64,000 bases of DNA from a virus (IMGVR_UViG_3300012933_000253:4187-68186), one strand, 5' to 3'. Positions 9,509 to 62,712 are shown, numbered from the stretch's first letter. The notes: generated by a model from the letters alone, not told the origin. Numbers and translations are program-made.

Positions 9509-10204
9509 ATGGCAGCAGATCCATTAAATTCGGTAGGTGGTTATAGCGTAAGCATCCCACCGGTGCAGGTGATTGACTTCACCGGCAACGTTACCACGCA
9601 ACACATTGCAGTAACTAACATAGACGTTAGTGCTAACATTAGTGTCGCTGGTACTTGCATTGCACAGAATTTTGTAGGTGATTTGGTTGGTAATGTATCA
9701 TCAGGTGGCATCATTGCTCCTGGATATAACTCTCATGTATTATACAATGATAACGGTAGAATCAACGGAACAGGTCTATTGACGATTGACACTGCAATTT
9801 CTAAAGTTACTGTCTCAGGTGAACTAACAGCAAATACAATAACTATAGGTTCTTCTGAAGAAAATCAATTCTGTACAACTAGTGTGTTACTTGCGACTAC
9901 GGTCTCAGACGCACCAAATCAAAATCTACATAGAACATTAGCAGACTCTATCTGCTCAATAGACTATACCATCATCGCTTCAGACACTATTGCAAATACA
10001 AGACAAACGAGTAAACTCTTTGCAGGCGTCTTAGGTAATGAAGTTGGCTATTTCGAATATGGTACAATTGATGTACCGCAGTCTAGTCCAGGTGTAGGTG
10101 ATTTTAAAGTTGTATATGATTCAGGTAACGTAGTGTTGACAGTGAACCCAATACCAAACCGTTTGGTCAACTACAAGATAATGATAACTAGCTATAAAGC
10201 ATAA
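9509..10204 (+). CDS. Virion structural/tail-fibre-associated protein (core fibre family 1)
   Basis: N-terminal LNSVGGYSV motif shared with the next genes; C-terminal beta-rich domain shared with 10216, 12809 and 14804. Confidence 0.7.
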   Translation: MAADPLNSVGGYSVSIPPVQVIDFTGNVTTQHIAVTNIDVSANISVAGTCIAQNFVGDLVGNVSSGGIIAPGYNSHVLYNDNGRINGTGLLTIDTAISKVTVSGELTANTITIGSSEENQFCTTSVLLATTVSDAPNQNLHRTLADSICSIDYTIIASDTIANTRQTSKLFAGVLGNEVGYFEYGTIDVPQSSPGVGDFKVVYDSGNVVLTVNPIPNRLVNYKIMITSYKA

Positions 10205-10215
10205 GGAAAACAGAA

Positions 10216-60700: not shown

Positions 60701-62712
60701 ATCAAATTTCAGGTAGTATGTATTTCGATGGTGCAGGAGATTACCTCACTATACCAGATGCTCCTATATACAACTTGACGAGCGGTGCATGGACAATCGA
60801 CTGTTACATATTCTCGACCGGCGCAACTGGGACATTCAGGACAATTATTTCTAAACGAAATGGCGGCAGTCAGTGGCAAATCTATATTCAAACTGGTACA
60901 AACTTGTTCGGATTCTACAACGGTACACAATACGTAACAAACATTGCAATCTTACCTAATATCTGGTATCATGTTGCGGCGTCATATGATGGTACTAACT
61001 TACGCATGTTTGTTAACGGTGTCTTGGGCTACACCGGTGCAGTTACCGCAGCAGCCGGAACAGATAGTATCTACATAGGTTCAGTAGCTGGCTCATCGGA
61101 ATTCTTCTCTGGATATATTGCGGGGTTGAGAGTCATTCGTGGTAAAGCATTATATGCAGCAGCCTTCATCCCTCCTACTTCCTTTCCGACAAGTTCTCCT
61201 GAAACAATATTATTGATTAAGGGAGATAACGCTGGCATTTACGATAGCACCGGCGGGAATAATTTAGAAACCGTAGGAAGTGCAAAAGTCAGTACAGCTA
61301 TTAAGAAATTCAATTCAGGGTCACTACAGTTTAACGGCAGTACTGACTACCTGATGATTCCAGGTAACCCTATCTTCAACTTGGGAACAAGTGACTGGAC
61401 AGTTGAAGCATGGGTATACTTAAATGCATTACCTACAAGCGATGCATGGCCAACCAACTTTAGTCAACACATGGTTCTTATCGGTGAAGGTACTGCTAGT
61501 CAAGGCGATGGCTTCTGTTGTATTATCGGTCAAACAAAGTTATTAGTACAGAACAACGATACACAGTTTGCTTCATCTGGTACACATGGAATGGCTATTA
61601 ATACATGGTATCACTTAGCATTTGTTCGTAGTAGCGGTACAATCATATTCTACGTAAATGGAGCATCCACTGGATCCGTTGCGTTTAGTGCGTCATTGGG
61701 CACAGGGGCATACACATTCATTGGGTGCGAGACTGCTCAAGGAGCTTACTTAAACGGGTACATAGACGACTTACGTTTCAGTAGAGTCGCACGTTATACC
61801 GGACCCTACTTCCCGCTACCAACTACATCAGCACAAGAAACAGGACCATCTGAAACAGAACCGGGCACCGGGGGTGTAACATATGTTGCAGGAGATGGAT
61901 TAAGTTCAGCGACTGCAGGATTAAGTGCAGCCGCAATCAAAGCTCAAACTGGTACTAATGCTGATGGCGCATATTGGATTAACTTACCTACTGTTGGACC
62001 TACTCAGATATACTGTATTATGAATAGTGCAGTAGCCGGCGGTGGGTGGATGATGGCAATGAAAGCAACACGTGGAACAACGTTTAGTTATAGTTCTACA
62101 CATTGGAATAGTGTTACAACATTAAACCCAACACAGAATAATCGTGCTGATGGTGATGCTAAGTTTAACACAATGAACTATTTCGAAGCCAACGATATCA
62201 TGGCATTGTTCCCTGATATAACAACTAACGGTGGTAGTCTAGGCACTAATGCGATGAATTGCTGGACTTGGTTAGAAAACAATTACAACGGTGGTACAAG
62301 AATTACCCCCATCAACTTCTTCAATACAGCCGGTACATTCAATACAGGTAACGTCAACACACCGAGTAATTACGGTGGTAAGTTCATTAAAGATGCTAAA
62401 ACATTTGCAGGCTGGACTGGGCAATTCTCGGGTCAAGCAAACATTCGTTTCTATGGATTTAACTTTAAAAACCCAGACGGTTACGGTAGTTTCAAGTGTC
62501 GCTGGGGCTTTGGTTGGAACGAAAACGGCGAGCCACTATACGAAACACCTGCATCATTAGTTGGTATATCTTATGCAGGCTCAAATGACGTTGGCGGTGG
62601 AATAGGCATGGATAGTAGTTTTGGTAGCTATAGTGCAGGTGACTATATTAGTTGCTGTCAAGACGCTACTGGTATCAACAGAAGTGCAAGAGTGGAGATT
62701 TATATTAAATGA
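57787..62712 (+). CDS. Giant lectin-like adhesin: six LamG/concanavalin-A-like domains plus a C-terminal fibrinogen-like domain
   Basis: Six S.YF.G..YL...FT(V/I)E.W.Y...W.H.A..R...G..GYIS..R repeats; DGAYWI....IYC.M....GGGW fibrinogen-like motif from ~61950. Confidence 0.85.
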   Translation: MPIFASRAAGAIRAFGMTVSSGASAIARDIYFRFNSLLLKGNTGEPLDTTPMLPPPVTYDNSGNAVVVSPVNTITSSLRSPNNGQYYSNYFNGSTDYLTVPQTFSLPTTTTAFTVEAWVYINAYTGLAISSTNWASGGAIPFFFGLVNTSASGSDVGGKPSLNYYDGSSWATGVISSVTIPLGTWAHVAGVFDGATAKIYVNGTQTGTWTTTWTTSSQVNYHIGRRWDTGGNNYFSGYISNYRLVIGTAVYTSNFTPSTTPLTAITNTKCLTSQSNRFIDNSSNNYAITPNGTVSVSQFNPFGTPSAYDSYGSVNFNGSSYLSTPYNSQFDFGTGDFTVEWWWYLNATFSGMEGPGIGQKASDGGNGWIIYRNHSINTDKITIRLSSANNDYSATVVPTVGQWQHWAVSRSGTTLQWYCNGVACGTYTGATGNASAGSSAPMYIGYAQTWSYTTGSSYLSNIRVTKGTALYTGTSAFTPPTTQLTSAAGTTLLTAQYNGSPTNSMIVDKSNVNSVITRTGNVSQGTFSPYHNSWSTYFNGSSYINAATNTATAFGTGDFTIELWVYPTAYPATAGTIYDTRPAGTGSASGRNLINLSSTGVPSYVSTVTTSGGTCPLATWTHIAVARQGTSTKMFVDGVQVGTTLADSTSYAVGANRPIIGTDGNSPLSAGYSFIGYISNLRVIKGKALYTAPFTPSVKPLSILNDSSSTTAFLALTNGRVDDISVFRHALTMTGTISTSMLSPFSPSIIAQNQGYYSTYFPSASWLLTPAISQTNIGTQDFTVELWFYMTNTASYGTLFNLGRYDTGIMLRIDTQAYVIYVMNSEITATGTAPLNTWVHLALVRKAGSMYVWANGSQVGTTKANSATISPTAAIKIGSSAHTSNEHFFGYISNIRLVVGNGLYSSAFTPPTTPLTAIAGTQFLGLQNTTQEDTSPNKMQVYVNGGTPTVVPFSPFTASATTVTVGTLMSPYQISGSMYFDGAGDYLTIPDAPIYNLTSGAWTIDCYIFSTGATGTFRTIISKRNGGSQWQIYIQTGTNLFGFYNGTQYVTNIAILPNIWYHVAASYDGTNLRMFVNGVLGYTGAVTAAAGTDSIYIGSVAGSSEFFSGYIAGLRVIRGKALYAAAFIPPTSFPTSSPETILLIKGDNAGIYDSTGGNNLETVGSAKVSTAIKKFNSGSLQFNGSTDYLMIPGNPIFNLGTSDWTVEAWVYLNALPTSDAWPTNFSQHMVLIGEGTASQGDGFCCIIGQTKLLVQNNDTQFASSGTHGMAINTWYHLAFVRSSGTIIFYVNGASTGSVAFSASLGTGAYTFIGCETAQGAYLNGYIDDLRFSRVARYTGPYFPLPTTSAQETGPSETEPGTGGVTYVAGDGLSSATAGLSAAAIKAQTGTNADGAYWINLPTVGPTQIYCIMNSAVAGGGWMMAMKATRGTTFSYSSTHWNSVTTLNPTQNNRADGDAKFNTMNYFEANDIMALFPDITTNGGSLGTNAMNCWTWLENNYNGGTRITPINFFNTAGTFNTGNVNTPSNYGGKFIKDAKTFAGWTGQFSGQANIRFYGFNFKNPDGYGSFKCRWGFGWNENGEPLYETPASLVGISYAGSNDVGGGIGMDSSFGSYSAGDYISCCQDATGINRSARVEIYIK

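Follow-up and report, generated by a model that had tools for sequence, protein, structure and literature searches.

Proposed split fibres with recurring coupling elements in a putative host-recognition locus of an uncultivated jumbo phage

We analysed a 64,000-nucleotide (nt) stretch of viral DNA (IMGVR_UViG_3300012933_000253:4187-68186; called the window below, with all positions counted over its whole length) in which a 53 kb block of fibre genes (9509-62712) lies directly downstream of the portal, protease and major capsid genes. We read this block as the host-recognition locus of a jumbo phage, made of split fibres that each consist of a carrier shaft, a coupling element and a separate receptor-binding tip, and give this reading a probability of about 0.7. 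Established here are the homologies among the cassettes, the folds of tip and connector, the synteny with relatives, the swapping of cassettes as units and their wide distribution.

In the proposed design the carrier, a repeat-rich shaft, would terminate in a conserved coupling element, of which there are a few kinds, and the receptor-binding domain would be on a distal tip that has its own gene. Coupling in class A would run through a C-terminal socket of ~135 amino acids (aa) on the carrier and an MPRLxSF-like plug formed by the first ~10-20 residues of the tip. In class B a PFLLMGA carrier tail would lead to a jelly-roll connector of 109 aa and from there to a tip with a basic N-terminus; in class C an L(I/V)FG carrier tail would be followed by a related connector of ~117 aa and a tip starting with MGRRxN or similar. 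Since the interfaces are conserved, the tips are not and the genes of a cassette abut or overlap, recombination can replace interface and tip as one unit. In this way a phage would come to have at least a dozen different binding heads.

Three IMG/VR relatives with capsid proteins 85-90% identical to that of the window were used for comparison: G001 (359 kb) and G002 (367 kb), both rated complete, and the fragment G003 (186 kb). Given the size of the two complete genomes and of the record containing the window (68 kb), the window is probably a fragment of an uncultivated jumbo phage of ~360 kb.

Putative coupling elements and tips of the fibre block

From the window 53 genes were extracted and compared all-vs-all by BLAST, and families were assigned by Pfam and PHROG scans. 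All sizeable open reading frames (ORFs) are on the plus strand. The block itself comprises ~43 genes on this strand, the starts and ends of which are all present as ORFs; spacing is -1 to +10 nt within cassettes and 7-44 nt between cassettes (coordinates in Table 1). The first-pass annotation had described ~44 consecutive genes as an adhesin arsenal of carrier, optional adaptor and tip units. The block is real, and the cassette homologies and tip families support a host-recognition arsenal of this make-up, but it also includes oxygenases, a cupin and phrog_7759 paralogues. The proposed classes A, B, C and E are borne out by the BLAST comparison; A, B and C can be separated by sequence, in agreement with the claim of several distinct, recurring coupling interfaces.

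The class A carriers starting at 34814, 45042, 47045, 49131 and 57144 share the ~135 aa C-terminal socket domain, with 47-59% identity among four copies and 28-37% for the copy at 57144. The socket has no Pfam match and falls in a PHROG family of unknown function; a tentative lead from the ESM Atlas points to PF26209 (Phage_phiTE_241_C). Scanning IMG/VR with the carrier 34814-37759 yielded at least 499 confirmed stretches, mostly matching the socket domain alone, and 79 loci were kept (next to the window) for a census. All ORFs ending in a socket (84/84) have a next ORF at -8 to +20 nt; carrier and tip are 1-10 nt apart in the window and -8 to +20 nt apart in 57 non-redundant pairs. The plug motif M-[P/S]-[R/I]-[L/F/I]-x-S-[F/L/I] is found in 43 of the 57 non-redundant followers; of the 463 remaining ORFs of these loci, 9 have it (Fisher p ~1e-41). 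The class A pattern is far beyond chance. The followers themselves range from 61 to 1641 aa, fall in 19 unrelated BLAST clusters and are glycine-rich in 14 of the 57 cases only. The same layout is present in the cultured Roseobacter phage CRP-3, Actinomycetia phage DSL-LC01 (with a YHYH tip) and Synechococcus phages S-H38 and S-BM3 (SPRY/DUF7483 tip).

Across 56 pairs no co-variation of socket and plug was observed (Mantel r 0.03, p 0.36, a comparison of 18-residue peptides with low power). The interfaces had been called orthogonal, which is too strong a word: the five class A pairs use one interface type, and no sign of pair-specific co-variation was seen in this class. Two class A carriers match PF03906 (T7 tail fibre N-terminal) with 44.6 and 37.6 bits (cut-off 25.2), only at positions 3-79 of the 157 in the profile; the match is internal in 34814-37759 (residues 472-540) and near the start of 47045-48241 (residues 45-112). 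A common freshwater-type contig family (L029-L043 and related IMG/VR loci) has a class A carrier of 1411 aa and a tip of 186 aa (MPRLSSINTF...), with two ~165 aa genes behind the tip whose PxGWTK motif resembles phage tail-collar domains.

Gly_rich_2 (PF21722) is detected in ten ORFs of the window at 35-165 bits (gathering score 24.3 bits), whereas the tip 57787-62712 has six Laminin_G_3 domains instead. A homologue search with the tip 48244-49107 gave 4,097 hits at E 1e-5 among the 8,000 candidates scored; these are metagenomic Gly_rich_2 proteins, many of them ~440 aa long, the size of the fused form. Its AlphaFold2 (AF2) model, built on 93 sequences, reaches a predicted local distance difference test score (pLDDT) of 92.3 and a predicted TM score (pTM) of 0.87. 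The model shows a TNF-like (tumour necrosis factor) beta-sandwich running into a glycine-rich lattice of extended strands; residues 1-20 are of low confidence, and here the conserved plug motif is located. The closest solved structures are Pam3 gp24 (7ypx_A; Z 15.8, root-mean-square deviation 2.5 A over 182 residues, 29% identity) and the Bxb1 tail tip (9d93, chains Qa/Qb; Z 15.1-15.3), while ALK/LTK glycine-rich domains score ~Z 7. As this fold matches a virion fibre, the tips appear to carry a known kind of receptor-binding head: judged by model and families, most would combine a TNF-like sandwich with a glycine-rich lattice, and others have laminin-G repeats or a fold that was not recognised.

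No gp38 family was among the Pfam and PHROG matches, and S16 gp38 (6F45) was not among the fold-search matches listed. Sequence searches against the PDB with profiles of tip, socket and connector and with the proteins 53937-57131 and 22335-24605 gave nothing useful, returning only a low-complexity match and a weak fucose-lectin-like stretch in 53937-57131. The tips of classes B and C (31362-32291, 39614-42118) end in Y.IY.FT.SG.ITF, and in class A tips (37766-38698, 48244-49107, 49672-50526) the motif occurs as GGYKYHxFTxSGTF right behind the N-terminal plug. This relocation may reflect a circular permutation or strand exchange of the first hairpin of the TNF-like domain.

Both class B cassettes have similar carriers (45% identity) and adaptors (62%). 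The class C adaptor is a distant homologue of the class B adaptor, both matching the first ~100 positions of phrog_1276, a PHROG family without functional annotation; nine copies of the class C adaptor occur in G001-G003, each between a carrier with an LxFG tail and a tip. The class C carrier is 46-52% identical to the N-termini of both fused class E proteins. An adaptor-like segment inside the latter was rejected, as Smith-Waterman scores were not above those of shuffled sequences. The GC (guanine plus cytosine) fraction rises to 0.56 at 40001-42000 against ~0.41 elsewhere, with a GC skew of 0.24. This is due to consecutive GGN glycine codons in 39614-42118, the tip with three Gly_rich_2 stretches, and not to foreign DNA.

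The class B adaptor is among the most conserved small proteins met in these data. Nearly all candidate 90%-identity clusters scored (7,998 of 8,000) pass E 1e-3, and the 120 matches listed are 109-110 aa long (119 of them exactly 109), 72-100% identical and without Pfam family. Triads of class B recur in unrelated contigs, where the carriers all end in a PFLLMGA-like tail and the tip start overlaps the connector stop (L099, L103, L104); one shares a contig of 50 kb with a capsid gene and with tail adaptor genes of the SU10 type, and another has a carrier of 1195 aa. In the Pontimonas siphophage phiPsal1 the connector adjoins a tail fibre gene.

According to the AF2 model (pLDDT 93.7) the connector is an eight-stranded jelly roll, all-beta and without a long helix. 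Foldseek matches it best to the C-terminal domain of Bd2133, a Bdellovibrio fibre (E 1e-3, 21% identity); this domain is likewise a small beta-sandwich at a fibre end. There, however, the domain ends the fibre polypeptide, whereas in the window it is a free-standing protein between shaft and tip genes. The match is also weak (TM ~0.48), with generic jelly rolls scoring equal or better in a wide fold search: the nucleoplasmin-like domain of plant HDT1 (Z 9.6), the trimeric cement protein of KHP40 (Z 9.5) and the turret of Haloferax tailed virus 1 (Z 9.5). The modelled fold is thus of a generic kind seen in oligomerising viral proteins, and has no diagnostic value. Look-alikes in BFVD include small proteins annotated as virion or virion structural in S-SCSM1, S-TIM5 and MaMV-DC, and tail fibre-like proteins of S-CAM1 and P-SSM2 contain the connector domain.

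For class D, said to occur twice, the carriers at 17647 and 24638 indeed share their last ~89 aa (34% identity, E 1e-8), but the followers have no detectable homology between the two cassettes; neither the small proteins (19552, 27527) nor the mid-size ones (19833/21089 vs 27829/28684) were linked by hhalign, and none of them matches a Pfam or PHROG family. The followers of the first cassette may be tip or assembly factor; in G003 their orthologues are 62-68% identical and have the same gene order. In each of G001, G002 and G003 the genes 27527, 27829 and 28684 stay together as a trio, behind carriers that differ.

Exchange of interfaces and tips among relatives

In the window and in G001-G003 the fibre block spans 48-59 kb between the capsid gene and a homologue of 63137-63571 (in G002, where this homologue was not found, the end was taken from the last fibre-type gene). 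G003 is syntenic with the window throughout, with 79-96% identity for head proteins (65% for the 273 aa protein 2557-3378), 80-84% for connectors and high values for carrier C-termini. Tips show 25-60% identity, a figure inflated by shared glycines; in tip 31362-32291 the first 20 aa are identical and the rest is 25-66% identical. The class D carrier 17647-19548 has 10-45% identity to its G003 orthologue over the N-terminal ~500 aa and 50-92% over the C-terminal ~140 aa. The contrast between divergent tips and conserved carrier C-termini and adaptors, as described in the first-pass annotation, is supported.

One exchange is seen in the G003 orthologue of the carrier 34814-37759. Its shaft is retained, but its C-terminus is a class C tail (AMAIVFGF), and the next genes encode a class C connector and a laminin-G tip of 2044 aa; at this place the window encodes a class A socket and a glycine-rich tip of 310 aa. 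Laminin-G heads are found in three settings: after a class A socket in the window and G003, after a class C connector in G001 and G003, and as part of the shaft polypeptide in G001 and G002. Gly_rich_2 genes also differ in number, from ten in the window to seven ORFs in G003, while G001 has five or six and G002 two. Relatives exchange interface and tip as units. Comparison with related contigs had been proposed as a way to refute the cassette concept, and in G001-G003 the cassettes do vary as units.

Shaft peptide repeats around AQPNITSVGTLTSLTVSG occur at ~18 sites in 12055-49303, in core fibres and in carriers of classes A, B and D, and can be detected in the DNA as repeats of 44-94 nt, which could serve as homology for shaft-shaft recombination. 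Invertible or shufflon-type switching was rejected: no inverted repeats of at least 30 nt are found in 9000-63000, all genes face one way, and the direct repeats are accounted for by runs of glycine codons and by the repeats of the shafts. A promoter and terminator scan of 30000-49999 gave counts not above those of shuffled sequence.

Comparison with known systems and alternative explanations

Phages T2, T6 and S16 carry gp38, a separate glycine-rich adhesin that is encoded just downstream of the distal fibre gene and sits non-covalently on the end of gp37. Similarly, class A tip genes directly follow their carrier gene. Nonetheless, gp38 has a helical attachment domain in place of a socket with plug peptide or a jelly-roll connector, and the genome of the window holds a dozen such pairs with several interface types. 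The link of the window tips to gp38 is only indirect, since it runs through the similarity reported between the structures of Pam3 gp24 and S16 gp38 (PMC9608196). Pam3 gp24 is a virion tail fibre with reported receptor binding, which docks to the baseplate with an N-terminal helical bundle and has a Tfa-like chaperone, gp25 (PMC9608196). The tip 48244-49107 superposes on its TNF-like and glycine-rich part (7YPX, 7YFW), and both are of the Gly_rich_2 kind. In Pam3, however, this is a single-protein fibre with its own docking bundle and chaperone, whereas in the window the domain is on a separate short protein with a ~20 aa plug, placed on a separate shaft, in ten genes and with no adjoining Tfa-like gene.

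Large numbers of receptor-binding proteins have been described before. In phiKp24 fourteen predicted tailspikes are hyperbranched via N-terminal anchors and T4 gp10-like domains (PMC9700779), and PhiK64-1 and RaK2 have up to eleven tailspikes (PMC9700779; PMC13282480); RaK2 and K64-1 have been described as relatives of PA5oct (bioRxiv 10.1101/406421). The first-pass claim that nothing like the window locus had been characterised thus goes too far, in view of this published fourteen-fibre system and of the tip fold solved in Pam3 gp24. With these branched systems (and with CBA120 and G7C), for which a hyperbranched arrangement was shown or modelled (PMC9700779), the window shares the large or jumbo myophage background and many receptor-binding proteins from one region, more than six simple fibres. 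Their receptor-binding proteins are single-chain tailspikes with beta-helix depolymerase domains, N-terminal anchors and gp10-like domains, whereas those of the window are split at the distal end and have glycine-rich or lectin-like heads. No depolymerase or gp10-like domain was reported by the Pfam and PHROG profile scans of the fibre genes.

Several points weigh against the split-fibre reading. That the parts dock, form trimers, are present in the virion and bind receptors is inferred; docking of plug to socket, and of carrier tail to connector to tip, is deduced from adjacency and termini that are conserved, from fusion forms and from the position of breakpoints. Five class A pairs would have to stay cognate in one cell, although no socket-plug co-variation was seen. 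Values of Z ~9 are common among small sandwiches, for which reason the connector fold alone is no proof of a structural role, and the virion labels of its BFVD look-alikes are database annotations as written. Finally, the class D components 19833-22330 and 27829-30075, without recognisable family, could be assembly factors.

This last point can be extended to all connectors, small acidic proteins and some of the tips, which would then be chaperones of the type of T4 gp38, Mu Tfa or Pam3 gp25 that leave the mature fibre. Chaperone genes are classically located just downstream of fibre genes (PMC7289586; PMC9608196), the small acidic class D proteins (93-100 aa) and their mid-size neighbours have no recognisable structural family, and glycine-rich tips weakly match phrog_863 'tail fiber assembly' (E 4.5e-6 and 4e-4). 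We nevertheless regard this explanation as very unlikely. In its fold the modelled tip corresponds to the part of a virion fibre that binds the receptor and not to the chaperone of that fibre, tips reach 834-1641 aa and include lectin-like laminin-G repeats, and shaft and glycine-rich domain also occur as one polypeptide (42133, 43704). Tfa-type chaperones combine a variable N-terminal domain with a conserved C-terminal alpha-helical trimerisation domain (PMC9608196); the latter is lacking in the all-beta connector, which has no Pfam match and in PHROG matches phrog_1276/693 only. Moreover, connector look-alikes bear virion annotations in phages for which a proteome has been published (45 proteins in the case of S-SCSM1).

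The products might also be real virion fibres of which many decorate head, neck or tail sheath as whiskers or hairs, so that there is no single branched baseplate apparatus and the count stays within the capacity of the baseplate. The location of the locus directly behind the head genes fits such an arrangement, as do the capsid fibres of PTm1 and PTm5 and the hairy tail of Erwinia Y3 among jumbo phages (PMC13282480), a connector look-alike in Agrobacterium phage Atu_ph07, and the carrier N-termini, which by reading fall into three or more sequence types and could thus belong to different sites of attachment. The present results assign no carrier to any site, though, while small phage contigs have the triad in the tail module, by tail adaptor or tape-measure genes, and the closest solved homologues of the tip are baseplate or tail-tip fibres; we consider decoration on this scale unlikely. 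Pairing could alternatively be promiscuous within a class, or particles heterogeneous, giving a mixed host range in the population instead of one fixed branched design. The 47-59% identity among four class A sockets, the single motif followed by all five plugs, the absence of co-variation and the 19 unrelated tip families accepted by the socket family across phages all point this way. On the other hand, the tight spacing and conserved adjacency suggest co-translational assembly of neighbours in cis, the Mantel test has little power on such short peptides, and no inversion or shuffling system is present in the co-oriented block; on balance we find this decidedly unlikely.

A broader version of the split-fibre reading is held more tentatively, at somewhat less than even odds. 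It states that a few mutually incompatible plug-socket interfaces (the class A socket with plug, two families of jelly-roll connectors with their carrier tails, and the class D unit) form an assembly grammar common to jumbo myophages, T4-like cyanophages, roseophage podoviruses and actinophages, in which heads can be moved as units, with at least a dozen heads per particle in this clade. No description of such a modular adaptor or interface grammar was found in the open literature as judged by titles and abstracts, which is no proof of absence, and nothing relevant was found there on PF21722/Gly_rich_2 in a phage context.

Other genes of the window and significance of the locus

All features are collected in Table 1. 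The core fibre genes have an N-terminal FNxVxGxSxG motif and QPNITSVGTL-type shaft repeats in common; their order is kept in G001 and G003 and differs in G002, which has extra genes between them. The protein 22335-24605 is probably a stand-alone, fused receptor-binding protein and not part of the first class D cassette: in G001 its orthologue sits after the other D-type cassette.

Table 1. Position and characteristics of the genes and cassettes in the window.
Feature	Position	Strand	Characteristics
Portal	457-2217	+	Left end of window
Prohead protease	3392-4027	+	Left end of window
Major capsid protein	5167-6363	+	Left end of window
Four core fibre-like genes	9509-10204, 10216-12792, 12809-14788, 14804-17602	+	PHROG structural/tail-fibre matches, mutual BLAST repeats
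Class D carrier 1	17647-19548	+	633 aa; PHROG tail-fibre matches; diverging shaft, last ~140 aa conserved
Class D1 followers	19552-19833, 19833-21086, 21089-22330	+	First small and acidic; latter two paralogues, 41% identical
756 aa protein	22335-24605	+	Central Gly_rich_2 PF21722, E 2.3e-14; phrog_2295
Class D carrier 2	24638-27511	+	957 aa; 21 PHROG tail-fibre families
Class D2 followers	27527-27829, 27829-28680, 28684-30075, 30077-30289	+	First small and acidic; last a putative 70 aa ORF
phrog_7759 small protein	30309-30668	+	PHROG E 2e-36; 72-84% identical in all three relatives, within fibre block
Class B carrier 1	30673-31023	+	116 aa; ends SPFLLMGA
Class B adaptor 1	31033-31362	+	109 aa, all-beta jelly roll (model); phrog_1276; 84% identical to G003
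Class B tip 1	31362-32291	+	309 aa; Gly_rich_2, E 3.3e-13; start overlaps adaptor stop
Class B carrier 2	32299-32670	+	123 aa; ends HPFLFLGI
Class B adaptor 2	32672-33001	+	109 aa; 62% identical to 31033-31362, 80% to G003
Class B tip 2	33001-34779	+	592 aa; two Gly_rich_2 stretches (Pfam)
Class A carrier 1	34814-37759	+	981 aa; socket hidden Markov model (HMM) E 3e-65, residues 847-981
Class A tip 1	37766-38698	+	310 aa, Gly_rich_2; N-terminus MPHFTAFAGSF, plug motif
Class C carrier	38713-39261	+	182 aa from ATG at 38713; ends GLSLIFGMQ; N-terminus homologous to 42133, 43704
Class C adaptor	39261-39614	+	117 aa; phrog_1276, E 1.5e-4; 81% identical to G003
Class C tip	39614-42118	+	834 aa; three Gly_rich_2 stretches (Pfam E 2.9e-48) and ALK_LTK_GRD match
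Fused class E fibres	42133-43704, 43704-45023	+	Class C-type shaft N-terminus, C-terminal Gly_rich_2
Class A cassette 2	Carrier 45042-46106, tip 46109-47008	+	Socket HMM, plug; tip Gly_rich_2
Class A cassette 3	Carrier 47045-48241, tip 48244-49107	+	Socket HMM; Gly_rich_2 tip, AF2-modelled
Class A cassette 4	Carrier 49131-49670, tip 49672-50526	+	Carrier 179 aa; socket HMM, plug; tip Gly_rich_2
Non-fibre island	50551-53515	+	2OG-Fe(II) oxygenases 50551-51132 and 52895-53515; phrog_7759 paralogue 51136-51573; phrog_7084; cupin 52530-52892
Further cassette	53541-57131	+	Small carrier 53541-53933 (ends PTTIALGL), 1064 aa protein 53937-57131
Class A cassette 5	57144-62712	+	Carrier 57144-57776 (divergent socket); 1641 aa tip 57787-62712, N-terminus MPIFASRAAG

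The two phrog_7759 paralogues (30309-30668 and 51136-51573) are 42% identical and start with MSHFAQIDENNIV; by sequence, nothing marks the protein 30309-30668 as a part of a fibre. The 2OG-Fe(II) oxygenases are absent from the fibre loci of G001, G002 and G003, and an orthologue of the cupin directly precedes the 22335-24605 orthologue in G001 and G003. Oxygenases and cupin might be fibre-modifying enzymes.

The protein 53937-57131 matches phrog_5838 'virion structural protein' over its full length and shares ~45% identity, again from end to end, with T4-like cyanophage proteins labelled 'virion structural proteins' (S-RSM4_036, S-RIM32, S-RIM44 and others); with its small carrier it is kept as a pair in G002 and G003. 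This protein is cyanomyovirus-like and the head genes are like those of the PA5oct and Vibrio 2.275.O jumbo phages. Phages of very different lineages seem to have fibre parts in common, and the cyanophage-like protein may hint at an aquatic, possibly cyanobacterial host.

With the capsid protein of Vibrio phage 2.275.O, and likewise with those of Pseudomonas phages in the PA5oct group, the capsid protein of the window shares 66% identity; for the Serratia BF, Yersinia fHe-Yen9 and Erwinia pEa_SNUABM phages, jumbo phages like the others, the value is 64%. Megablast of both halves of the locus against GenBank phages gave no match, and neither did tblastn of the core protein 9509-10204 against the same set. 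The phages in which the interfaces of the window occur probably have aquatic bacteria as hosts. Directly after the capsid gene are two paralogous genes of ~120 aa (6507-6875 and 6980-7339, 41% identical), which may encode head decoration proteins. They are followed by an ORF of 681 aa with a GTG start (7370-9415), which has no counterpart in the regions fetched from the relatives and only a faint endolysin-like PHROG match.

Summarizing, many-headed jumbo phages, separate distal adhesins (T2/S16 gp38) and a solved glycine-rich head (Pam3) were already established. Distinctive here is the combination of distally split fibres, a few interface types in parallel within one genome, a hugely abundant free-standing connector, and interfaces that recur in unrelated aquatic lineages. 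Which hosts an environmental phage infects can mostly not be read from its sequence, since fibre genes are mosaic and lack annotation. Should the interfaces truly dock, they would provide sequence rules for where a shaft ends, which downstream gene is the binding head and which parts are exchangeable. As the elements are very common and without functional annotation, a solved connector-shaft-tip complex would annotate a large share of aquatic viral dark matter. The interface reading, if true, would explain how jumbo phages gather many binding heads and swap their host-recognition parts.

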